Source: Thermodesulfobacteriota bacterium
Lineage (GTDB): Bacteria; Desulfobacterota; GWC2-55-46; JADFVP01
Assembly (NCBI GenBank): GCA_046754225.1
Contig: JBHHVI010000004.1
Span: 147-64,146 of the forward strand
DNA: 64,000 nucleotides
Direction: 5' to 3'
Positions 3,419 to 49,469 of this stretch are shown here, in pieces; position 1 is the first letter of the stretch; each line of letters begins with the position of its first letter. The position numbers were made by a program, and so were the translations under genes. The notes beneath the pieces are model-generated. The model was not told the DNA's origin and did no database searches. It was given only the letters and a program-made list of their open reading frames with translations.

Positions 3419-3447
3419 TTGAGTTTGTGCTTTTCAGAGGGTATTAT
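3419..3447 (+). promoter_or_regulatory. candidate sigma70 promoter for the selenoprotein gene
   Basis: TTGAGT (3419-3424), 17 nt spacer, TATTAT (3442-3447). Confidence 0.35.
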
Positions 3448-3516
3448 TAAGATGAAAATCTTTAAAGGCGCAAAATCTCAAATGCCCTCGGAACTTTTTC
3501 GGGGCGGGAGGCTTTT

Positions 3517-3732
3517 ATGGAAAAAAAGGTTCTCATCTTCGGCAAGGATACCTGACCCTACACGAGCGCGGCCCGTGAGGATTACGCGAAAAAGGGTTAC
3601 GACGTCGAGTACGTGAATGTCAAAAGCTCCGCCGCGAATATGGACAGGATGCTTGATCTCTCCGGCGGAGGACGCGACGTCCCTCTTATCGTCACAGAGG
3701 GGAAGACTACCGTGGGGTTCGGAGGCACGTGA
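3517..3732 (+). CDS. glutaredoxin-like (NrdH/YruB-type) selenoprotein; the in-frame UGA at 3553-3555 is read as selenocysteine
   Basis: RBS GGGAGG at 3505-3510 then ATG at 3517. Translation is MEKKVLIFGKDT-U-PYTSAAREDYAKKGYDVEYVNV...RDVPLIVTEGKTTVGFGG. The TGA sits exactly where the first Cys of the glutaredoxin C-P-Y-C motif would be, and the protein continues in frame with glutaredoxin-like conservation (VP.IV..G...VGF) for 58 more codons to TGA at 3730. Confidence 0.7.
3557..3581 (+). other. SECIS-like hairpin immediately 3' of the in-frame UGA
   Basis: CACG(3561-3564)...CGTG(3574-3577), extended by c3558-g3580 and t3559-g3579, with an apical loop agcgcggcc. It begins 6 nt after the UGA. 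Confidence 0.4.
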
Positions 3733-3851
3733 GGGGTTTAGCCCCGGGCCGGGAGGCTCCCGGCCGTAAATTCCTTGAATATAAAATCAGCGCCTTTAAG
3801 AGGCGGGGCCGGGTTTAAAGACCCTGTCCCGTGACTTATGTGATAGGGCTA

Positions 3852-3880
3852 CGCACCCTGAAAAGGTGCGGCGCTTTTTT
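3852..3880 (+). terminator. rho-independent terminator
   Basis: CGCACC-ctgaaaa-GGTGCG then gcgc TTTTTT. Confidence 0.7.
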
Positions 3881-4019
3881 CGTCTAAATGGCGATTTTTT
3901 GTTTATGGAATACCCGGTTTAAGTGGCGGTCCATCAAAAAACCCCAAAGGACAGCGGCCCGGCTTGCGGCCGGGGAATTAAACTATAAGAGATTAAAAAA
4001 ACCAGGAGGAAGGTATAAG

Positions 4020-4439
4020 GTGGAGAAGACTCTTTCCATAGTCAAACCGGACGGCGTGAAAAAAAATATTATAGGAGAGGTTATTTCGAGGTTCGAGAAG
4101 AAGGGTCTGAAGGTCTCGGCCTTGAAGATGATAAGCCTTACGAAGAAAGAGGCCGAGGGTTTTTACGCCGTGCATAAAGAGAGGCCCTTTTTCTCGTCCC
4201 TTACGGACTTCATGTGTTCGGGCCCTGTGGCGGTGATGGTCCTTTCCGGGGATAACGCCGTCAAGACGGTAAGGAGCGTCATGGGGGCGACAAACCCCGA
4301 GGACGCCGACCCCGGCACCATCAGAAAGGACTTCGCAGACTCCATAGAGTCGAATATCGTCCACGGCTCCGACGGCCCCGACACGGCGGCCTTTGAGATA
4401 GGTTACTTCTTCAACGCCCTTGAGATATTCGAAGGATAA
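4020..4439 (+). CDS. ndk: nucleoside diphosphate kinase
   Basis: [13 protein letters not shown]..., active-site NIVHGSD; GTG start with RBS AGGAGGA 9 nt upstream. The track ORF 3888..4439 is trimmed to this start. Confidence 0.9.
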
Positions 4440-4448
4440 AAGGATAAG

Positions 4449-5333
4449 ATGAACTCCATAGAAAAGATAAAGTCCCATTACAACTTCACCAACGGCGACG
4501 TGGAAAACCTCTTACGCCTCAAGCCCTTTATGGAGAAGCACCGCGGCGACTTCGTGGTGCAGTTCTATAACTATGTAAAGAACTTCGAGGAGGCCCACAG
4601 GTTCTTAAAGGACGAGGCCACCATAAAGAGGCACCAGGATGCCCTGAAGATCTGGTTCACGCAACTCTTTTCGGGAGAGTACGGCCCAAGGTATTTGGAG
4701 GGGCTCGAAAGGGTGGGCATGACCCATGTGAAGATAAACCTGCCCGCCCATTACGTCAACGCTGCCTTCCATTTCGTAAAGGATTACGTATACGAAAAGA
4801 TACAGGGCGAGATCAAAGACCCCTCGGAGCGCTCCTTTGTGCTCCGTTCCGTTTACAAGATAATCGAAATAAACCTCGACGTCTTCACGAGTTCCTACAT
4901 CGCCGAGGAAAAAAAGTTCTTCCTCTCGCAGAGGGTGGAGTCCTACCTCGTACAGGCGGCCAACCGTTTTGTCTACGGCATGAACCTCGTCCTCGTCCTC
5001 GGCCTCGTCGTTATCGGGGTCATGGTCGTGGTGCTCTTTGTCAACGACATGACCCACGTATTTGACGGCGATGTGGAAAAGGGGCTCCTCTCCACCCTTG
5101 GTACGCTCCTTATGCTATGGGTGGTAATCGAGCTTATGGACACGGAGATACGGCACCTGAAGGGCGGCAAATTCGCCATAAAGGTGTTTGTAAGCGTCGC
5201 CCTCGTGGCCATAATAAGAGAGATATTGATTACTTCGCTGAAGGGCGCCGAGGCGATGAACACCCAGCTTACGCTTATCGCGGCCGTGGCCGTGCTCGGA
5301 GGCGTTTACTGGCTCATCTCAAAGGTGGAGTGA
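4449..5333 (+). CDS. globin-coupled sensor (protoglobin-type) N-terminal domain fused to a PsiE-like multi-pass membrane domain
   Basis: The N-terminal ~170 aa match the globin-coupled-sensor globin fold pattern (FYNYV..., RYLEGLERVGMTHVKINLPAHYVNAAFHFV with a proximal His candidate). The C-terminal ~125 aa are hydrophobic and align with E. coli PsiE. Confidence 0.6.
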   Translation: MNSIEKIKSHYNFTNGDVENLLRLKPFMEKHRGDFVVQFYNYVKNFEEAHRFLKDEATIKRHQDALKIWFTQLFSGEYGPRYLEGLERVGMTHVKINLPAHYVNAAFHFVKDYVYEKIQGEIKDPSERSFVLRSVYKIIEINLDVFTSSYIAEEKKFFLSQRVESYLVQAANRFVYGMNLVLVLGLVVIGVMVVVLFVNDMTHVFDGDVEKGLLSTLGTLLMLWVVIELMDTEIRHLKGGKFAIKVFVSVALVAIIREILITSLKGAEAMNTQLTLIAAVAVLGGVYWLISKVE

Positions 5334-12988: not shown

Positions 12989-13122
12989 TTTACGGACGCC
13001 GCTGATAGCCGGGTCTTGCGCAATGGGAAAGTCTCAAACCCCGCCAGGTCCGGAAGGAAGCAACGGTAGCGGCTTAAACCCATGTGCCGCAAGGGTGCCT
13101 GGCTATCAGCGGCGTCCGTAAA
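12989..13122 (+). ncRNA. ffs: SRP RNA (4.5S RNA)
   Basis: Conserved domain IV motif CCAGGUCCGGAAGGAAGCAAC. The 22-nt 5' arm tttacggacgccgctgatagcc is perfectly complementary to the 3' arm ggctatcagcggcgtccgtaaa. Classic position upstream of dnaX. Ends are approximate. Confidence 0.9.
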
Positions 13123-27022: not shown

Positions 27023-28048
27023 GTGAAGAGAAGATTGTTAACAGGCTTATTAGTCTTAACGGCAGCGCTCTTCATTAAAGCGGATATCTCCTCTTCAGCA
27101 ACGGGCACGCAGGGCGTCGCCGGGACCGTTGCCGCGTACACGAATGGTCTCGCCGCCAACGGCATCGTAGGCACAAGGCATAACATGGGCGCCTTCGGCG
27201 GCCCGATACGTACCAATGCCACAACTCAGGTATGCGTCTTCTGCCATACACCTCACCACACGAATCAATCTGCCGCCCCGCTCTGGAACAGGTCCACGGC
27301 CAACTCGACGAGTTATCAGGCTTACGGGTCTACCATAGGCGGCAGTAATATAACGACGGTAGACGGAGGCGCCTCCATCGCGTGCCTCAGTTGCCATGAC
27401 GGCGTCACCACCTTTGACAGCATTGTCAACGCCCCTGGAAACGGCGGGATTACCGCAGGCGGTTCCGACCAGCAATGGTCGTTTATAATGGCTGACGTAG
27501 GGTTGGACCTGGGTGCTTGGGACCATTTCGGCACTCCAGGTAATGAGAACGTCTGGTGTACTGCCTGTCACGGCACCGGAGGTTTTGCTCAAGGCCCGAA
27601 CACATGGCAGCGTCTCTCTATTGGCACGGACCTCACAAACGACCACCCCGTCTCGGTTACCTATTCCGGCAACACAAAGGCGAGCCTCAGGGCAAAGACT
27701 ACCGTACTGGGCACCATAGACCTTACGACCGGGCTCAGCAACACAAACTCATTAAGCGCATATTACCAGGCCATGACCCAGAACCGCTGGGCCGTAAACG
27801 GTTCCATCTCTGACACCGCCAATATCAGCGCTCTCTTGAGGAACGATAAGGTGGAGTGCAGTTCGTGCCACGACCCGCACTTCAAGAACCTCTCCTGGGA
27901 CGAGGCGGATGCCTCCTATGACGCCAATTATACAATCGGCGGCGCGAGCAAATGGTGCAGCGGGGACGCTTGTATCGACGGCCTCTTCTTAAGAAGGGTG
28001 GGCGGCAACACGGGCTCAGGCGTTTGCAGGACCTGCCACGATAAATAA
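27023..28048 (+). CDS. secreted pentaheme c-type cytochrome, Thr/Ser/Asn/Gly-rich, OmcS-like by motif pattern
   Basis: Sec signal peptide (MKRRLLTGLLVLTAALFIKA). Five CxxCH motifs: CVFCH, CLSCH, CTACH, CSSCH(DPH) and a C-terminal CRTCHDK*. Low-complexity T/S/N/G-rich composition and many N-x-S/T sequons. GTG start with RBS AGGGGG. Confidence 0.75.
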   Translation: MKRRLLTGLLVLTAALFIKADISSSATGTQGVAGTVAAYTNGLAANGIVGTRHNMGAFGGPIRTNATTQVCVFCHTPHHTNQSAAPLWNRSTANSTSYQAYGSTIGGSNITTVDGGASIACLSCHDGVTTFDSIVNAPGNGGITAGGSDQQWSFIMADVGLDLGAWDHFGTPGNENVWCTACHGTGGFAQGPNTWQRLSIGTDLTNDHPVSVTYSGNTKASLRAKTTVLGTIDLTTGLSNTNSLSAYYQAMTQNRWAVNGSISDTANISALLRNDKVECSSCHDPHFKNLSWDEADASYDANYTIGGASKWCSGDACIDGLFLRRVGGNTGSGVCRTCHDK

Positions 28049-35779: not shown

Positions 35780-35811
35780 GGCCCCGCAGAAACCCTGCGG
35801 GGCCTTTTTTT
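35780..35811. terminator. bidirectional rho-independent terminator between convergent genes
   Basis: GGCCCCGCAG-aaacc-CTGCGGGGCC followed by TTTTTTT, between the carbonic anhydrase (+) and the S2P gene (-). Confidence 0.8.
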
Positions 35812-37446: not shown

Positions 37447-38496
37447 TCATAAACCCACTCCGTCTATAATAACGCCGCAGTACGGGCACATTGAACCCTT
37501 TATGACATTCTCTTTTACGTAAAAACCCCTCCTCTCTATGAGGAGCTTATTGCAATTATAACAGAAGGTGGACTCTCCCTTAAGGCCGGGGATGTTGCCG
37601 GTATAGACGTACCTGAGCCCCTCTGCAATGCCAATTTCGCGGGCCCTCACGACCGTCTCTGAGGTTGTAGGGGGGGCGTCCGTTAGTTTGTACGTCGGAT
37701 AAAAGGCGCTTATGTGCCAGGGCATAGTCTTGTCCGTCTTTGAGATCCACTCTGCGATGCTCTTTAACTCATCCTCGGAGTCGTTGTATCCGGGGATAAT
37801 GAGCGTGGTTACCTCAACCCATATGCCGGCCTCTCTCATGTACTCGATGCTTTCAAGGACCGGGGCGAGTCTCGCGCCGCAGACCTTTTTATAAAAATCA
37901 TCGGAAAAGGATTTTATATCCACGTTGGCGGCGTCAAGAAACTCGCGCGATTCGTCGAGGCACTCCCGTGTCATATAGCCATTCGTTACAAAGACGTTTT
38001 TTATCCCCCGCCTTCTCGCCAAGAGGCCGGTTGCACGGGCGAATTCAAAGAATATCGTGGGCTCTGTATAGGTATAGGCTATGCTCGCTGAGCCCGATGA
38101 AGCGGCCTTCATGACGACCTCTTCGGGGGAGGCCTCATGGCCGGCTATCCTTTTTGCGTCCCTGGGCATCTGTGATATATCGAAGTTCTGGCAATGGAGG
38201 CATCTGAAATTGCACCCCACCGTCGCCATGGAATAGGAAGAGGAGGATGGGAGGAAATGAAAAAGCGGTTTTTTCTCTATGGGGTCTATGTTTTCCGCTA
38301 TAAGGAGCCCGTAGACGAGTGTGTATAGCACGCCCTTTCTGTTTTCCCTCACGCCGCAGACGCCGCGCCGGCCTTCCTTTATGCGGCAACGGAAGGAGCA
38401 CAGGAGACAGTTTACCTCATCTCCGCTCCTTTTTTCATAGAGGCGCGCCTCCAAAACGCCGGGCGCAGTCTTTGTTGTTTTCTCAGGATTCGCCAT
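37447..38496 (-). CDS. radical SAM enzyme, AmmeMemoRadiSam/PflA-like family with C-terminal zinc ribbon
   Basis: CNFRCLHCQN (CxxxCxxC) and a C-terminal CYNCN...CPYCG. No AMMECR1 or MEMO1 partner in the window. Confidence 0.75.
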   Translation of the reverse strand: MANPEKTTKTAPGVLEARLYEKRSGDEVNCLLCSFRCRIKEGRRGVCGVRENRKGVLYTLVYGLLIAENIDPIEKKPLFHFLPSSSSYSMATVGCNFRCLHCQNFDISQMPRDAKRIAGHEASPEEVVMKAASSGSASIAYTYTEPTIFFEFARATGLLARRRGIKNVFVTNGYMTRECLDESREFLDAANVDIKSFSDDFYKKVCGARLAPVLESIEYMREAGIWVEVTTLIIPGYNDSEDELKSIAEWISKTDKTMPWHISAFYPTYKLTDAPPTTSETVVRAREIGIAEGLRYVYTGNIPGLKGESTFCYNCNKLLIERRGFYVKENVIKGSMCPYCGVIIDGVGL

Positions 38497-39139: not shown

Positions 39140-40180
39140 CTAAAGGATTTTCGTTATTTCGTCCCTTTCAGGGAGTTCCAGTGCCCTCTTGCCCGATCTT
39201 CCCCTGATTATTACGCCGTCTTTTTTTCCGGTAACGGCGCCTATCCGCGTCGCGGCGATTCCGGCCTTTTTAAGTCCCATGAGCATCTTTTTTGTGTCGC
39301 GTGGGTCTACCGCGGCGAGTAGTGAGCCTGACGCTATAAGGCCCATGGGGTCGAGGCCGAAGTGGGCGCAGACCCGCTCTGTTTCGGGTAACACGGGGAT
39401 GAACTCTTCATCTACCTCTACGCCGCGCCCGGCGGCTATGGCCAACTCATGGAGGCCTGTGGCGAGTCCGCCCTCCGTCGGGTCATGCATGGCGTGAACG
39501 CGGCCCCATTTGAGGGCCGTCTGTGCGTCTTTAAGGACGCTGATGCCCGGGGCCTTTAAAAAATTTCTGCATCTGGCGATAAACCTCTTTGAGAAGAGGC
39601 CTTTTTTTATAAGGCCCTCTCCCTTCGACCTTGCGATAATGCTCGTGCCCTCGATGGCCAATCCCTTTGTGAGTATGATTGCGTCATTGGAGCTTGCGCC
39701 CGCCGTTGTAATCAGGCGCCCTTTTTTTACGGTGCCGAGCATTTGTCCAACGACTATGGGTCTATTTACCCCGGGGGTGACTTCCGTGTGTCCTCCGCAG
39801 AGCGATACGCCGGCGGCCCTTGATGCCCGGCCGAGCTGAGAGAATATCCTTTGTGCCGATTTTTGCGTCGCCGCCCCTTCGGGAAGGAGCACGGCCGCCA
39901 GAAACCACCTCGGAACGCCGCCCATGACTGCTATGTCATTGGCGTTTATGTGGAGCGCGTAGACCCCTATATCTTCCGCCACAAAAGTAACGGGGTCGGT
40001 CTTGGCGACAAGGTATCCCCCGTGAAAATCAATTATTGCCGAGTCTATGCCCACGCCGGGACCGACTATGACGTCCTTTGAGAGAGTTATATGTTTTTTT
40101 AAAAATCTTTCAAGGAGGTTCAAAGGCAGCTTGCCGGCGGGTAGTTTTGTTTGAGCCGATGTCAATGCGTGACCTTTCAA
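39140..40180 (-). CDS. AIR synthase-related (PurM-like superfamily) ATP-dependent enzyme
   Basis: PurM-like N- and C-domains (DSAIIDF...VAKTDPVTF, GGHTEV, GISVLKDAQTALK..HDPTEGGLA). Lacks the N-terminal Cys/Sec motif of SelD and the C-terminal Cys of HypE. Confidence 0.65.
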   Translation of the reverse strand: MKGHALTSAQTKLPAGKLPLNLLERFLKKHITLSKDVIVGPGVGIDSAIIDFHGGYLVAKTDPVTFVAEDIGVYALHINANDIAVMGGVPRWFLAAVLLPEGAATQKSAQRIFSQLGRASRAAGVSLCGGHTEVTPGVNRPIVVGQMLGTVKKGRLITTAGASSNDAIILTKGLAIEGTSIIARSKGEGLIKKGLFSKRFIARCRNFLKAPGISVLKDAQTALKWGRVHAMHDPTEGGLATGLHELAIAAGRGVEVDEEFIPVLPETERVCAHFGLDPMGLIASGSLLAAVDPRDTKKMLMGLKKAGIAATRIGAVTGKKDGVIIRGRSGKRALELPERDEITKIL

Positions 40181-44410: not shown

Positions 44411-45088
44411 TTATGCCGGCTCGCTCTTCAGGTAGCTGATGGGGTCCCTGACGCCAGCCTCCTTAAAACCCCTTATCCTCAGAAGGCACGAATCGCAGCC
44501 GCCGCAGGCCACTGAGCCGTCCCTGTAACATGACCATGTGAGATGAAAGGGGGCTCCAAGGGCGGCGCCTCTTTTTACTATCTCCGCCCTTCTCATGTGG
44601 ATAAGCGGGGTTTGTATCCTTATCCTTGTGCCGGGCCTCGTCCCGGCGTTCGCCGCCGCTTCAAAGGCGCGGAAAAATTCCTCACGACAGTCCGGGTATC
44701 CGGAGCTGTCTTCCTCTACGGCGCCTATATAAACCTCTCCCGCCCCCAGGACCTCGGCCCACGAGACGGCTATGGTCAGGAGGTGGGCGTTCCTGAAGGG
44801 CACATACGTTAGGGGGATACCCCCCCGGGCCAGGTCGCCCTCGGGAACCTCTATCCCTTCGTCTGTAAGGGCCGAGCCGCCTATCGCCTTTAAGTGGCTT
44901 ATGTCGGAGACAAGCCTTTTTTCCGCCCTGTAAAAATCCGCGATCTCTTTGAAGGCCCTTAGTTCGCGCTCCTCGGTCCTCTGACCGTAGTTTACGTGAA
45001 GGAAGGCGGCCTCGCCCTTTTCCAGGGCCATGGCGGCGGTAACGGTACTGTCGAGCCCCCCGCTTAAAAGAACAACCGATGATTGCAT
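44411..45088 (-). CDS. queC: 7-cyano-7-deazaguanine synthase QueC
   Basis: PP-loop SGGLDS and C-terminal zinc motif CGGCDSCLLR; start trimmed to MQSSVVLLSGGLDS. Confidence 0.9.
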   Translation of the reverse strand: MQSSVVLLSGGLDSTVTAAMALEKGEAAFLHVNYGQRTEERELRAFKEIADFYRAEKRLVSDISHLKAIGGSALTDEGIEVPEGDLARGGIPLTYVPFRNAHLLTIAVSWAEVLGAGEVYIGAVEEDSSGYPDCREEFFRAFEAAANAGTRPGTRIRIQTPLIHMRRAEIVKRGAALGAPFHLTWSCYRDGSVACGGCDSCLLRIRGFKEAGVRDPISYLKSEPA

Positions 45089-45175
45089 AATTAAATTAAA
45101 GCATAAGCGCCCCCACTCCTCAACCATATTTTTTATCCCCACAAGTTCAGTTTGAAGATAAAAAATATGGGGCCC

Positions 45176-46765
45176 TCAACTACAGTCGCCCCGGCAGAAG
45201 ACCTCCTTTATGACTTTAAGGAGGTTTTCGTCAAAGGGCCTCGCGCCGTCAAGTATAAGGCGCGCCGTCTTTTTTTTCTCATAAGAGGCCTTCTGCCCTT
45301 TAAATATATCCCCTCTCATGTCGGAAGCGGCGCCGCCCGGAGGAGCAGCGGCTTCTTCGAGCCTCTTTAAAAGGCGGCCCCTGATGAGTTCCTCCGGCGC
45401 GGTGCACTCTATTATATGGATGAGGGGCCGGGGCGTGCCGGCCCTGCGACCCTCCAAAAGGGCAAGGTCCAAAAACCGGGCCTTTGAGAAGGTGGCGTCG
45501 AGTATGCAGGTACGCCCCGCCTTCAGGAGTTCCACGCCCCGTCTTATGAGTTCCCCGTATGTCTTTTCCGTGAATTCTCTTGAATATATGCCTGCCCCGA
45601 ACTCCTCGAACCGGTGCTCGTCGGGGTTTATTCCGGCAAGCTCCTTCCTTACGGCGTCGGAGCTCAAGTGCACCGCACCGGTGCTCCCTCTAACGGCCCG
45701 GGCGATTGCTGACTTGCCCGTTCCCGAAAGGCCGCATGTTATTATAAGTTGCGGCTTAAACCCGCCGGCCGCGTATTGACCGGCGAGGTGGAAGTGGTGG
45801 AGCGCCCCGATGAAGGCCTCTTTTTTCTCCGCCCCTTCCACCTCGGGCTCAAGGTATTTGAAACCCTCCACCTTGGCGCGGATAAAAGCGCGGTAGCATT
45901 TGTAGAAGTTGAGGAGCTTTTTCCCGTCCTCGTCGCCTGAACTGGAGAAGTAGGCCCGGTCAAAGGCCTTTGAAAGGTCGGCCCTGTTGAGGTAGTCCAG
46001 GTCCATGGAGAGGAACGCCATATCCGAGACCGTATCGGAGAAGCGGAACCGCTCGTTGAACTCGATACAGTCTATGATGTTTATGGCCCCCTCGATTGAG
46101 ATATGCTCGGCGTGTATGTCCCCGTGGCAGTCCCTTATAAAACCGTCGGCCATCCTTTTAAGAAAAACCCCCTTGTGGCGCTCAAGGAAATCCTCGCTGT
46201 AGGTCTTTATCCGCCTGTAAAGGTCTTCCGTTAAGAGCCTGCCTGTAAAATCCCGGGTCTGTGAAAAATTTTCCTCAATATTCTTTTTTATAACATCGTA
46301 AGACCCGAAGCCTGAGATGCGCGCGTCTGTAGAGGCCTTTTTATGGAATAGGGATATCTTCTCCGCCACCCTTTTGATGACGGCTTCCGTAATCCGTTCC
46401 TCTCTAATCATCTCGTCGAGCATCGCCTCGCTCTTGAGCCGCCGCATCTTCACGGCGTATTCAATGGCTATGCCTTTGCCCCCCATACGCACACGGCCGT
46501 CCTCTTCGTTTATGCTCGCCACCCCCAGATAGACATCCGGGGCGAGCCTCCTGTTGAGCCTCACCTCTTCGTGGCAGAACTTTTTCCTCCTTTCAAGGGT
46601 GGTAAAGTCGAGGAAACCGAAGTCCACGGGCTTTTTGACCTTGTATACGAACTCAGGTGTGAAGAAGAGGTAGGATATGTGGGTCTGGTGGAGGACTACC
46701 TTTTCCGCCCCCTCGGGGTAAGCCCCGGTGTTCAGTAAGGCCTTTATATGACGCGGCAGTCCCAT
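45176..46765 (-). CDS. bifunctional aminoglycoside phosphotransferase-like kinase / P-loop ATP-binding protein
   Basis: N-terminal APH/choline-kinase-like fold (HGDIHAEHI, IDCIEFNERF...D) plus a C-terminal P-loop domain (GLSGTGKSAIA). Confidence 0.75.
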   Translation of the reverse strand: MGLPRHIKALLNTGAYPEGAEKVVLHQTHISYLFFTPEFVYKVKKPVDFGFLDFTTLERRKKFCHEEVRLNRRLAPDVYLGVASINEEDGRVRMGGKGIAIEYAVKMRRLKSEAMLDEMIREERITEAVIKRVAEKISLFHKKASTDARISGFGSYDVIKKNIEENFSQTRDFTGRLLTEDLYRRIKTYSEDFLERHKGVFLKRMADGFIRDCHGDIHAEHISIEGAINIIDCIEFNERFRFSDTVSDMAFLSMDLDYLNRADLSKAFDRAYFSSSGDEDGKKLLNFYKCYRAFIRAKVEGFKYLEPEVEGAEKKEAFIGALHHFHLAGQYAAGGFKPQLIITCGLSGTGKSAIARAVRGSTGAVHLSSDAVRKELAGINPDEHRFEEFGAGIYSREFTEKTYGELIRRGVELLKAGRTCILDATFSKARFLDLALLEGRRAGTPRPLIHIIECTAPEELIRGRLLKRLEEAAAPPGGAASDMRGDIFKGQKASYEKKKTARLILDGARPFDENLLKVIKEVFCRGDCS

Positions 46766-46804
46766 GTATATCCGGCTTCCCTTTTTGTGAAGGGTGTGAA
46801 GTTG

Positions 46805-47326
46805 TCAATCTTTCAGGAGATAAAGCCCCGGTAGTTCCCTGTACCTCTCCATAAAGTCCATGCCGTAGCCCACAACAAAACCCTCGCCCAGGGTCCTGCC
46901 CACGTAGTCGACGACGGGCCGCCCCTTTGCGGCCCCTTCCCTTAGAAGGAGTGTGCAGACCTTTATGGAGGACGGGCCGAGGCTTTGAAGGCGCTCGATG
47001 ACCGCCTTTATTGTAACGCCTCTATCCACGATGCCCTCGACTATAATAATGTCTCTGCCTTTTATCTCATGGGGAGGCAGGCCTCTGAGGGCCGCCTTTT
47101 CCGAAGGGGCCCCCTTCTTGCCGTAGGAGGAACTCTGGATAAAAACCGCCTCAACGGGGATGCCCACCTCTCTCATCAGGTCTGACATGAAGATAAAGGC
47201 CCCCTTCAATACGCAGATGAGTACGGGGTTTTTTCCTCTATAGTCCTCGCCTATCCTTACCGCGAGCCCCTTTACGATAGATTTTATTTCCCCAGGGGAT
47301 ATGAAGGGTTTTATTGTTTTCGGCAT
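46805..47326 (-). CDS. hpt: hypoxanthine phosphoribosyltransferase
   Basis: PRPP-binding motif IIIVEGIVDRGVT and the characteristic Hpt N-terminus. Confidence 0.9.
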   Translation of the reverse strand: MPKTIKPFISPGEIKSIVKGLAVRIGEDYRGKNPVLICVLKGAFIFMSDLMREVGIPVEAVFIQSSSYGKKGAPSEKAALRGLPPHEIKGRDIIIVEGIVDRGVTIKAVIERLQSLGPSSIKVCTLLLREGAAKGRPVVDYVGRTLGEGFVVGYGMDFMERYRELPGLYLLKD

Positions 47327-47669: not shown

Positions 47670-49469
47670 ATGATAGACAGAGAGAGGATACGCAATTTTT
47701 CCATTATCGCCCATATAGACCACGGCAAATCCACGCTCTCCGATCGCCTCCTTGAGTACACCGGGACCGTCACAAAGCGGGAGATGGTCAAACAGTTTAT
47801 GGACAAGATGGACCTTGAAAGGGAGAGGGGCATAACCATAAAGGCCCAGACGGCGCGGCTCATTTACAGGGCCCTCGACGGCAAGGACTATATCCTGAAC
47901 CTCATAGACACGCCCGGGCACGTGGACTTCAGTTACGAGGTGAGTAGATCTCTTTCGGCCTGCGAGGGGGCCATACTCATCGTGGACGCCTCACAGGGCG
48001 TGGAGGCCCAGACCCTCGCGCACCTGTACACGGCCGTTGACGTGGGCCTTGATATCATACCGGTCCTTAATAAGATAGACCTGCCGCAGGCCGAGCCTGA
48101 GAGGGTGAAGAGCGAGATAGAGGACGTGCTCGGCCTTGACGCCTCCGGGGCCGTACTTGCGAGCGCCAAGGAAGGGATAGGGATACGCGAGACCCTTGAG
48201 GCGATAGTCCAGAGGATACCTCCGCCGTCGGGCGACGCTGAAAAGCCCTTGAAGGCCCTCGTATTCGACTCATGGTACGATATCTACCAGGGGGTGATAA
48301 TACAGATACGGGTATTCGACGGCGTTATAAGGAAGGGGACGAAAATAAAATTTTTCGCCACGGGAAAGACCTTTGATGTGGAGAGTACGGGGGTCTTCAC
48401 GCCCCATCCGCAAAGGATTGATGAACTCGGCCCCGGAGAGGTGGGCTTCGTTATAGCGGGCATAAAAGAGGTAAGGGACACGAGCGTGGGCGATACGCTT
48501 ACCGACGCTTCGAGACCCGCCGGCGAGGCCCTTCCGGGCTACAAGGCGGTAAAGGCCATGGTCTTCAGCGGCCTCTACCCCGTCGATTCCTCACAGTACG
48601 AAAACCTAAAGGAGGCGGTTATAAAACTCCGGCTCAACGACTCCTCTTTCTCCTTTGAGCCGGAGAGCTCCCTTGCCCTCGGTTTCGGCTTCAGGTGCGG
48701 TTTTCTCGGCCTCTTCCATATGGAGATTATAAGGGAGAGGCTCGAGAGGGAATACGGCCTTGAGCTCATCACCACGGCCCCCACCGTCTCCTACAGGGTT
48801 ACGAAGACGGACGGAGAGGTTATATACGTGGAAAACCCCACGGACCTGCCCACTCCCCAGTACATAGAAGGGATAGAGGAGCCCTATATACTTGCCACCC
48901 TCCACCTGCCTTCCACGTACCTCGGGGCGGTCTTAAAGCTCTGCGAGGCGCGACGGGGCATACAGAAGGAGATAAAGTACATAACCACCGAGAGGGTGCT
49001 CGTAGAGTACGAACTGCCCCTTAACGAAGTGGTTATGGATTTTTACGACAGATTGAAGACCATTACAAAGGGGTACGCCTCCCTCGATTACGAATACCTT
49101 GACTTTAGAAAATCGGACCTCATAAAACTCGATATCCTCATCAACGGCGAACCGGTAGACGCCCTGTCGCTGATAGTCCCCAGAGACAGGGCCTACGTGA
49201 GGGGAAAAGAACTTGTGGAGAAGATGAGGGAGATTATACCGAGGCAGATGTTCGAGGTCGTCCTTCAGGCGGCCATTGGAAGCCGCATTATAGCCCGAGA
49301 GTCCATAAAGGCCATGAGAAAGAACGTCACGGCAAAGTGCTACGGCGGCGATATAACGAGAAAGAGAAAACTTATCCAGAAGCAGAAAGAGGGTAAGAAG
49401 AGGATGAAGCAGGTGGGAAGGGTGGAAATACCTCAGGAGGCCTTCCTCGCCGTCCTCAAGGTGAGCTGA
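47670..49469 (+). CDS. lepA: elongation factor 4 (LepA)
   Basis: G domain ([23 protein letters not shown]) and LepA-specific C-terminal domain; 599 aa. Confidence 0.95.

Follow-up and report, generated by a model that had tools for sequence, protein, structure and literature searches.

The interval 3517-3741 of the window (the whole 64-kb stretch of DNA that was analyzed) very probably encodes a protein of 74 residues that belongs to UXX-star selenoprotein family 1 and has a truncated glutaredoxin fold and two selenocysteines (Sec). Comparison with homologous loci supports a genuine selenoprotein gene, its product small and glutaredoxin-like, with one UGA in the active-site motif and a second UGA three codons before the stop codon. 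The features of the locus are as follows.

3419..3447, + strand: promoter-like TTGAGT, 17-nt spacer, and TATTAT, 5' of the gene (consensus scan alone, 9/12 matches)
3506..3511, + strand: Shine-Dalgarno sequence GGGAGG, 5 nt 5' of the ATG (read directly in the sequence)
3517..3741, + strand: predicted coding sequence of the 74-residue UXX-star family 1 selenoprotein (NF041114 match and homologues), with stop codon TAG at 3739-3741
3553..3555, + strand: predicted first Sec codon UGA, residue 13, in U-P-Y-T, aligned with the near-invariant Cys of C-P-Y-T
3567..3588, + strand: SECIS 1, a noncanonical candidate; lower stem 3567-3570 / 3585-3588, upper pairs 3573-3574 / 3579-3580, GUGA at 3575-3578
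3730..3732, + strand: predicted second Sec codon UGA, residue 72, of the "UXX-star" motif, followed by Gly-Val-stop as in homologous loci
3747..3765, + strand: SECIS 2, of canonical bacterial type; 8-bp stem 3747-3754 / 3758-3765, loop GGC at 3755-3757
3852..3880, + strand: terminator-like hairpin with T-run (pattern scan), before the probable ndk start near 4017

The frame that opens at ATG 3517 runs for twelve codons to TGA 3553-3555, continues for 58 sense codons, and reaches a second TGA at 3730-3732. An earlier reading of the letters alone (the sequence-only reading) had described the GGGAGG, the ATG, the in-frame TGA, and the 58 further codons, and all are present as stated. It had also pointed out correctly that a plain ORF caller stops at the first TGA and misses the gene. 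Translation through that TGA, with * for each TGA, gives MEKKVLIFGKDT*PYTSAAREDYAKKGYDVEYVNVKSSAANMDRMLDLSGGGRDVPLIVTEGKTTVGFGGT* (beginning MEKKVLIFGKDT*PYTSAARED and ending VGFGGT*), and the full predicted product is MEKKVLIFGKDT-U-PYT...GFGGT-U-GV, 74 residues in length. The ATG and the ribosome-binding site are read in the sequence; translation would start at ATG 3517, which places the N terminus of the product in line with the starts of its homologues. The sequence at 3419..3447 is a weak candidate for a promoter, and the gene appears to form a monocistronic unit closed by the terminator-like element at 3852..3880.

With the tail included and both U residues entered as C, the product matched the NCBIfam model NF041114 ("UXX-star selenoprotein family 1") at 115.4 bits (E = 1e-33; cutoff of 72), and its residues 5-74 covered profile positions 1-70 of 70. 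Without the tail, the match was 106.2 bits (E = 7e-31) over positions 1-67 of 70; the last three profile positions were matched solely when the tail was added. The U-P-Y-T at residues 13-16 is the U/C-x-x-T motif required of the family within its glutaredoxin fold, and Sec72 followed by exactly two residues and a stop codon is its UXX-star tail. The Pfam Glutaredoxin model (PF00462) was matched at 32.2 bits against a cutoff of 22.9, again with U as C. The NrdH/YruB-like identity proposed in the sequence-only reading did not survive these comparisons: the scores were 19.5 bits against a cutoff of 85.75 for NrdH (TIGR02194) and 35.2 against 88.55 for YruB (TIGR02196), and it is the glutaredoxin fold that is matched, via PF00462. 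Two further identities were rejected, namely, Grx3 (TIGR02181, GRX_bact; 35 bits versus 90, the motif being U-P-Y-T with no C-x-x-C dithiol) and PRK10638 (24.5 bits versus 129).

From 5.8 billion proteins searched, 153 relatives were retrieved, whereas exact look-ups of the product with X or C at the Sec positions matched no entry. The top relatives are 69 to 72% identical to the product over all 71 residues, and more than 150 full-length homologues are 60 to 72% identical over the same length. Across 40 aligned homologues, C13, P14, Y15, and T16 are near-invariant, and conservation runs on to the C-terminal G-F-G-G-T, which indicates that the 58 codons after the TGA are under protein-level selection. 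The sequence-only reading had named a lack of conservation downstream of the UGA as grounds for abandoning its claim; conservation to G-F-G-G-T is what the homologues display. Its central proposal, a selenoprotein with UGA at the first redox Cys, is borne out by the same alignment, in which the TGA falls on the near-invariant Cys column. The motif was misread, however: the relatives have C-P-Y-T, not C-P-Y-C, and the U-x-x-T arrangement that had been thought unusual is near-invariant in the family and its hallmark.

The family had been catalogued before, both in NCBIfam and in published selenoprotein lists. A 2026 review (PMC13188914) lists a "Distant Grx-like protein 1" with UxxT and two Sec residues and credits it to Zhang and Gladyshev 2008, although the name "Distant Grx-like" was not found in that paper itself; a 2022 review (PMC9312934) lists the same family, with a GlrX_YruB-like domain. 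The 2026 review further cites Haft and Tolstoy 2025 for UXX-star selenoprotein family 2 and related star-motif families. The gene is therefore an ordinary member of a known family, and this kind of system is not new. As far as our literature search reached, the family is biochemically uncharacterized; the predicted function of the product is that of an oxidoreductase.

Two sets of relatives were used for comparisons at the nucleotide level. The first comprised 61 loci from reference genomes; the peptide pattern used in that scan contained Cys, so all have Cys at site 1 (the position of Sec13), and they served as controls. The second comprised at least 120 metagenome loci collected with a DNA pattern that had TGA at site 1, and one extra Sec-form locus, L062, came from a truncated NCBI gene call. 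Because the scan patterns fixed site 1, the ratio of Sec to Cys forms in these sets is meaningless. The patterns spanned only ~30 nt around site 1, and results for site 2 (the position of Sec72) are thus independent of how the loci were found. A total of 175 loci could be read through the 3' end, 115 with Sec and 60 with Cys at site 1.

The sequence-only reading placed the stop codon at 3730. The sequence from 3730 to 3741 is TGA-GGG-GTT-TAG, or U-G-V-stop, and among the matches listed 172 of the 175 loci follow G-F-G-G-T with TGA, exactly two further codons (mostly G-V), and a stop codon. This tail is present in 115/115 of the forms with Sec at site 1 and in 57/60 of those with Cys, among the matches listed. 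The three exceptions are L025, which has TGC (Cys)-G-V-stop; L020, which has TCA (Ser)-G-V-stop; and L032, whose tail is divergent. Judged by this conservation, TGA 3730 is a second Sec codon and not the end of the gene, and the true stop codon is TAG 3739-3741. The defining feature of the gene, a second Sec codon served by a SECIS in the 3' untranslated region (UTR), is what the sequence-only reading overlooked.

The hairpin downstream of this codon has the properties of a bacterial SECIS. SECIS 2 folds at -17.1 kcal/mol, its loop begins 22 nt after the second UGA, and it satisfies all four constraints of the consensus bacterial SECIS (bSECIS) model of Zhang and Gladyshev, as summarized in PMC13188914. 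Among the matches listed, all four constraints are satisfied by 129 of 166 distinct relatives, compared with about 9.5 of 166 when the sequences are shuffled. In the same 166 relatives, 156 of the 3' hairpins have G in the first two loop positions, and the distance from UGA to loop clusters at 16 to 23 nt (both among the matches listed). RNAalifold recovered a 7-bp SECIS 2 helix in 22 mostly delta-lineage sequences, with 98.7% of cells paired. Double-sided changes numbered 19 cells, versus 3.9 +/- 1.6 after shuffling (0 of 500 shuffles reached 19), and the covariation collapsed when the partners were slid. A covariance model built from 20 relatives, with the window left out, found 3744-3766 at 25.5 bits (E = 6e-4) as the only significant site in 64 kb besides its own reverse complement; the next unrelated match, at 15 bits, was a bidirectional terminator. 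The 3747-3765 hairpin itself has no T-run and is therefore not a terminator. Together, these comparisons are strong support for 3747-3765 as a canonical bacterial SECIS for UGA 3730.

At the first UGA, the same TGA is found in at least 113 metagenome loci and in L062, with the frame kept on both sides through GFGGT and with synonymous variation upstream of the TGA in the Sec-form loci. The orthologous gene between nth and ndk has Cys at site 1 in seven loci (L001, L005, L010, L011, L013, L020, and L025) and Sec in three others (L144, L078, and L180). Orthologues thus exchange Cys and Sec at site 1 but keep Sec at site 2. Since Sec is near-universal at site 2 and optional at site 1, the pattern suggests that the tail Sec72 is the essential reactive center of the protein. 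Within the window, TGA is the commonest stop codon, ending 23 of the 51 long ORFs, which points to the standard genetic code and to a need for a local signal at both UGAs.

Single-sequence folds around the first UGA were uninformative or misleading, and RNAalifold applied to all 115 Sec forms gave no consensus structure because the stem occupies three registers. We relied instead on register-by-register counts, a permutation test, and codon-usage contrasts, comparing 115 forms with Sec at site 1 to 48 with Cys. Synonymous sites downstream of site 1 are constrained in the Sec forms only. Among the matches listed, GCC encodes the Ala at +18 in 111/115 Sec forms versus 15/48 Cys forms; for the Arg at +21, 114/115 Sec forms use CGU or CGG and none uses CGC, the codon chosen in 29/48 Cys forms. 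These preferences define a fixed RNA string, GCC-CG[U/G]-GA-GG, and the downstream codons decide in which of three registers (H49, H50, and H57) a short GC stem forms around it. One of the three is fully formable in 95/115 Sec forms versus 9/48 Cys forms among the matches listed (Fisher p = 1.5e-14). When the 3' halves were permuted among the Sec forms, only 47.7 +/- 4.1 were formable, with a maximum of 61 in 2,000 trials against the 95 observed, and slid registers left almost no formable stems. The two apex pairs are formable in 84/115 Sec versus 10/48 Cys forms, among the matches listed. The first Ala codon varies at its synonymous third base together with the downstream codon that pairs with it: GCG is accompanied by GCG or GCC, and GCC by GGC. 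The window sequence is in the H49 register (CGCG/CGCG), and its close relative L062 has a compensatory G-C in place of the window's C-G at the outermost pair.

The element so defined in the window, SECIS 1, pairs C3567-G3588, G3568-C3587, C3569-G3586, and G3570-C3585 below an internal loop and C3573-G3580 and C3574-G3579 above it. Its stem begins 11 nt, and its loop 19 nt, after the first UGA. Its comparative support is strong, but the element is weak in isolation: it folds at -7.3 kcal/mol, a stability equalled by 63 of 200 shuffles. Relative to the consensus bSECIS, the GUGA loop and the 19-nt spacing fit, but the contiguous upper stem of 2 bp and the energy of -7.3 kcal/mol do not. Nearly all Sec forms among the matches listed fail the strict bSECIS model in this region; our implementation demanded no fewer than 4 contiguous bp in the upper stem. 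The Rfam SECIS families gave no match (gathering thresholds over the whole window and E <= 10 on 3450-3800), a result that says little because bacterial SECIS elements are too short and varied.

A different hairpin, 3557-3581, had been put forward as the SECIS in the sequence-only reading. It does fold, at -9.9 kcal/mol (z = -2.6), and is the most stable local fold in the window sequence, although its start lies 2 nt, not 6 nt as had been stated, beyond the UGA. As a SECIS it fared poorly across the family: among the matches listed it is fully formable in only 29/115 Sec forms (and in 1/48 Cys forms), and three close relatives (L062, L078, and L180) lack some of its pairs and show no compensation. 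The loop of this hairpin begins only 9 nt after the UGA, and its 3' arm is the conserved CGUGAGG. With moderate confidence, we consider 3567-3588, and not 3557-3581, to be the functional element for UGA 3553.

These observations bear on several other accounts of the locus. A 71-residue protein with a single Sec, ending at TGA 3730, would use 3557-3581 as its SECIS and would make the 3' hairpin a terminator or mRNA stabilizer. The stability of 3557-3581 and its greater frequency in Sec than in Cys forms among the matches listed (29/115 against 1/48) are what this account would predict, and yet it is very unlikely: the second TGA is followed by two conserved codons and a stop in 172/175 loci and replaced by Cys or Ser in two (among the matches listed), the NF041114 profile includes the three tail residues, and the 3' hairpin combines the absence of a T-run with a G-rich loop at a fixed spacing of 16 to 23 nt in relatives. 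The uncompensated loss of pairs in three close relatives and the 9-nt distance to the loop weigh against 3557-3581 in the role assigned to it. If the UGAs instead specified Trp, Gly, or Cys, whether by reassignment of the code or by near-cognate read-through, the lack of visible Sec machinery in the window would be accounted for, and Sec insertion is itself our interpretation of the codons. Such decoding is extremely unlikely given that TGA ends 23/51 long ORFs in the window, that hairpins with G- or GU-starting loops lie at SECIS-like distances after both UGAs, and that both columns alternate in relatives only with Cys (Ser once). Still harder to credit is a locus in which both TGAs are ordinary stops and only a pseudogene or a 12-residue peptide is left. 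TGA is indeed the commonest stop in the window, and no Sec machinery is encoded there, but more than 110 independent loci keep the TGA with protein conservation on both sides and synonymous variation upstream, the RNA constraints 3' of the codon are specific to Sec forms, and sister metagenome-assembled genomes (MAGs) have Cys forms at the orthologous nth-ndk position.

The remaining alternative accepts two Sec residues and differs over what they do: the selenols could form a ligand site for a metal or metalloid (for example, Hg or As) and not a redox pair. Metal binding by the family's Sec residues has been suggested (PMC13188914). We regard this role as unlikely, on the grounds that the fold and the C/U-P-Y motif are those of thiol oxidoreductases and that the gene lies among groEL, nth, ndk, a protoglobin-PsiE gene, and rlmN, with no metal-resistance gene beside it. 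Nor do such genes recur among the immediate neighbors in other phyla.

The gene order groEL, nth, UXX-star, ndk, protoglobin-PsiE, rlmN, mtaP, pfkB is common to related delta-lineage MAG loci. In other phyla, the recurrent neighbors are a tandem ThyX-like gene, a 4HBT thioesterase, an ABC-transporter ATPase-like gene (not family-scanned), and an MBL hydrolase, and no functional partner gene was common across phyla among the neighborhoods compared. Neither tRNA-Sec nor selA, selB, or selD was found within the 64-kb window. SelD carries an N-terminal G-x-G-C/U-K motif; an AIR-synthase-like protein at 39143-40180 has no such motif, scored 77.9 against a cutoff of 125, and was rejected as SelD. 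A GTPase at 47670 considered as SelB is LepA. Two scans of the window for TGA-interrupted frames, as signs of further selenoprotein genes, gave only noise; the PRTase, AAA_33, and QueC hits from these scans are same-frame but unrelated genes.

On the two-Sec reading, we propose the following mechanism. Comparison with relatives supports an RNA element at 3567-3588; this weak, interrupted hairpin would recruit SelB with Sec-tRNA(Sec) at UGA 3553 and so place Sec13 in U-P-Y-T. At UGA 3730, the conserved element at 3747-3765 in the 3' UTR would likewise direct insertion of Sec72, after which Gly, Val, and the stop codon UAG 3739 would complete the chain. Sec insertion at both sites would be SelB dependent. 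The protein would act as a small thiol/selenol oxidoreductase that draws its second redox residue from the tail rather than from a CxxC motif. Sec72 may be the partner of Sec13, forming a reversible diselenide or, in relatives with Cys13, a selenenylsulfide. We infer this pairing from the fold alone, given Thr in the place of the customary resolving Cys and a chain that ends directly beyond G-G. In glutaredoxins, the G-G region lines the substrate groove beside the active-site Cys; the alignment register to E. coli Grx3 is ambiguous. Two more tentative ideas, taken jointly, go further: that a putative Sec13-Sec72 diselenide operates with the tail Sec as the primary catalytic center and that the element at the first UGA represents a candidate minimal SECIS class, with a GNRA-like G[U/G]GA tetraloop and two C-G pairs above an internal loop, outside the consensus model.

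Among known systems, the NF041114 members are the closest: the product scores above the curated cutoff over the full profile and has their U-P-Y-T, U-x-x-stop tail, two Sec codons, and length of ~70 residues. No defining difference separates the gene from them; it is an instance from a Thermodesulfobacteriota MAG with the H49 variant, one of three, of the SECIS 1 stem. Classical dithiol glutaredoxins, E. coli Grx3 (PDB 3GRX/1FOV) and a CPYC-type Grx (7NCV), were matched weakly but significantly, at E = 3e-4 to 1e-3. The product shares with them the cis-Pro VP motif and the Pfam Glutaredoxin domain, and its active site likewise opens with C/U-P-Y. In contrast to them, the product has Thr for the second Cys, lacks the C-terminal helix after G-G, and gains a Sec tail. 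A clostridial selenoprotein glutaredoxin (Kim et al. 2011, cited in PMC13188914) likewise has Sec for the first redox Cys but is a full-length Grx with one Sec in U-x-x-C, no C-terminal Sec, and no 3'-UTR SECIS. NrdH and YruB are also small proteins with a glutaredoxin-like fold, whereas their motifs, tails, and family scores differ.

A more distant likeness is to animal thioredoxin reductase, whose tail is G-C-U-G-stop. In 1999, Arner and colleagues reportedly produced recombinant thioredoxin reductase in E. coli by positioning a SECIS beyond the stop codon. Common to the two cases are a flexible tail with a reactive Sec two residues before the C terminus and a bacterial-type SECIS in untranslated RNA after the stop; in our case, however, the fold is unrelated, the layout is a natural bacterial one, and the proposed partner lies in the Grx active site and not adjacent in the tail. 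As for the RNA elements, SECIS 2 resembles the E. coli fdhF-type consensus bSECIS in its 3-nt, G-starting loop, its 8-bp stem, and its 22-nt spacing, whereas SECIS 1 departs from it with two apical pairs on an internal loop and -7.3 kcal/mol. The SECIS 2 apex of the delta-lineage relatives is CAGGUCUG, which we take to match the apex of the E. coli fdhF SECIS.

The correct product of this gene would be 74 residues with Sec13 and Sec72, in place of the 12-residue stub or the 71-residue protein that a stop at the first or second TGA would give. Such genes are truncated or skipped by gene callers for which TGA is always a stop; the relative P0115, whose annotated gene call begins at an internal start downstream of its own first TGA, is an example. 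The family is widespread, as a single pattern scan yielded at least 120 metagenome loci. In the source Thermodesulfobacteriota MAG, the gene would imply that UGA is read as Sec, which fits the lineage. If the diselenide reading is true, the protein would be a natural bacterial diselenide oxidoreductase whose resolving residue comes from the tail; if the minimal SECIS class is true, elements of this sort in other genes may escape the SECIS search rules now in use. With a weak in-frame SECIS and a strong 3'-UTR SECIS in one short mRNA, the gene would offer a compact natural test system for the minimal needs of a bacterial SECIS and for the reasons that Sec is retained, exchanging with Cys at site 1 and near-fixed at site 2.

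Among the matches listed, selenocysteine (Sec) is absent from site 2, the second Sec codon of the UXX-star gene, only in L020, L025, and L032. The codon is TCA (Ser) in L020 and TGC (Cys) in L025, each followed by Gly-Val-stop, and remnants of SECIS 2, the 3'-UTR hairpin, persist downstream in both loci; L032 has a divergent, Cys-rich tail in place of the Sec tail. In the ENA protein P0050, the Sec column is occupied by Leu (KDT-L-PYT); the rest of the protein is identical to the read-through translation of L160, a locus with TGA at site 1, the first Sec codon (Sec form). This Leu looks like an artifact of the source's translation of the in-frame TGA. Two Sec-form metagenome loci, L124 and L143, lose the family reading frame about 30 codons in. 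L124 then runs on into unrelated sequence, the loss in L143 looks like a frameshift, and either locus could be a decayed copy or a chimeric assembly.

Several other features of the window were considered in connection with Sec or TGA recoding. The top off-target match of the SECIS 2 covariance model (15 bits; E = 0.29) was the following:

35780-35806, between convergent genes: GC-rich hairpin

An A-run and a T-run lie on either side of this hairpin and give it the look of a bidirectional terminator. TGA recoding was also weighed for three consecutive genes that share one reading frame, with just TGA and 11 to 13 sense codons as separators:

44411-47326, minus strand: phosphoribosyltransferase, AAA_33-domain protein, and QueC

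Since the three families are unrelated, the shared frame looks like a coincidence rather than recoding. The AIR-synthase-family protein scores under the cutoffs for HypE, SelD, and ThiL and is not SelD; a radical SAM gene lies nearby:

39143-40180, minus strand: AIR-synthase-family protein
37450-38496, minus strand: AmmeMemoRadiSam radical SAM gene

Elsewhere in the window are a candidate cytochrome gene and an RNA cluster:

27023-28045, plus strand: ORF of 341 residues
12727-13107, plus strand: tRNA-Ser(CGA), tRNA-Ser(GGA), and small SRP RNA in series, immediately upstream of dnaX

With its paired CXXCH and cytochrome c7-like motifs, the former probably encodes a multihaem cytochrome c. The mechanical ORF of dnaX, which starts at 13084, and the SRP RNA overlap; the profile match of dnaX runs from residue 40 onward.

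Two genes lie directly downstream of the UXX-star gene:

3888-4439, plus strand: ndk (mechanical ORF)
4449-5330, plus strand: protoglobin-PsiE fusion gene (294 residues; protoglobin domain PF11563 and PsiE membrane domain PF06146)

Because the Ndk profile match begins only at residue 44, the true start of ndk is probably near 4017, which would place the terminator-like site at 3852-3880 within the intergenic gap. The fusion protein has no match among NCBIfam profiles. In related delta-lineage MAG loci, its gene shows synteny with ndk and the UXX-star gene. In other phyla (Acidobacteriota relatives, L028 to L179), the UXX-star gene often adjoins a tandem ThyX-like (Thy1) gene of 546 residues (at least 24 loci), a gene for a 4HBT thioesterase (at least 20), or one for an MBL-fold hydrolase (at least 10). 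Considered alongside the delta-lineage neighbors nth and ndk, these genes from other phyla hint loosely at a connection of the UXX-star gene with nucleotide metabolism.
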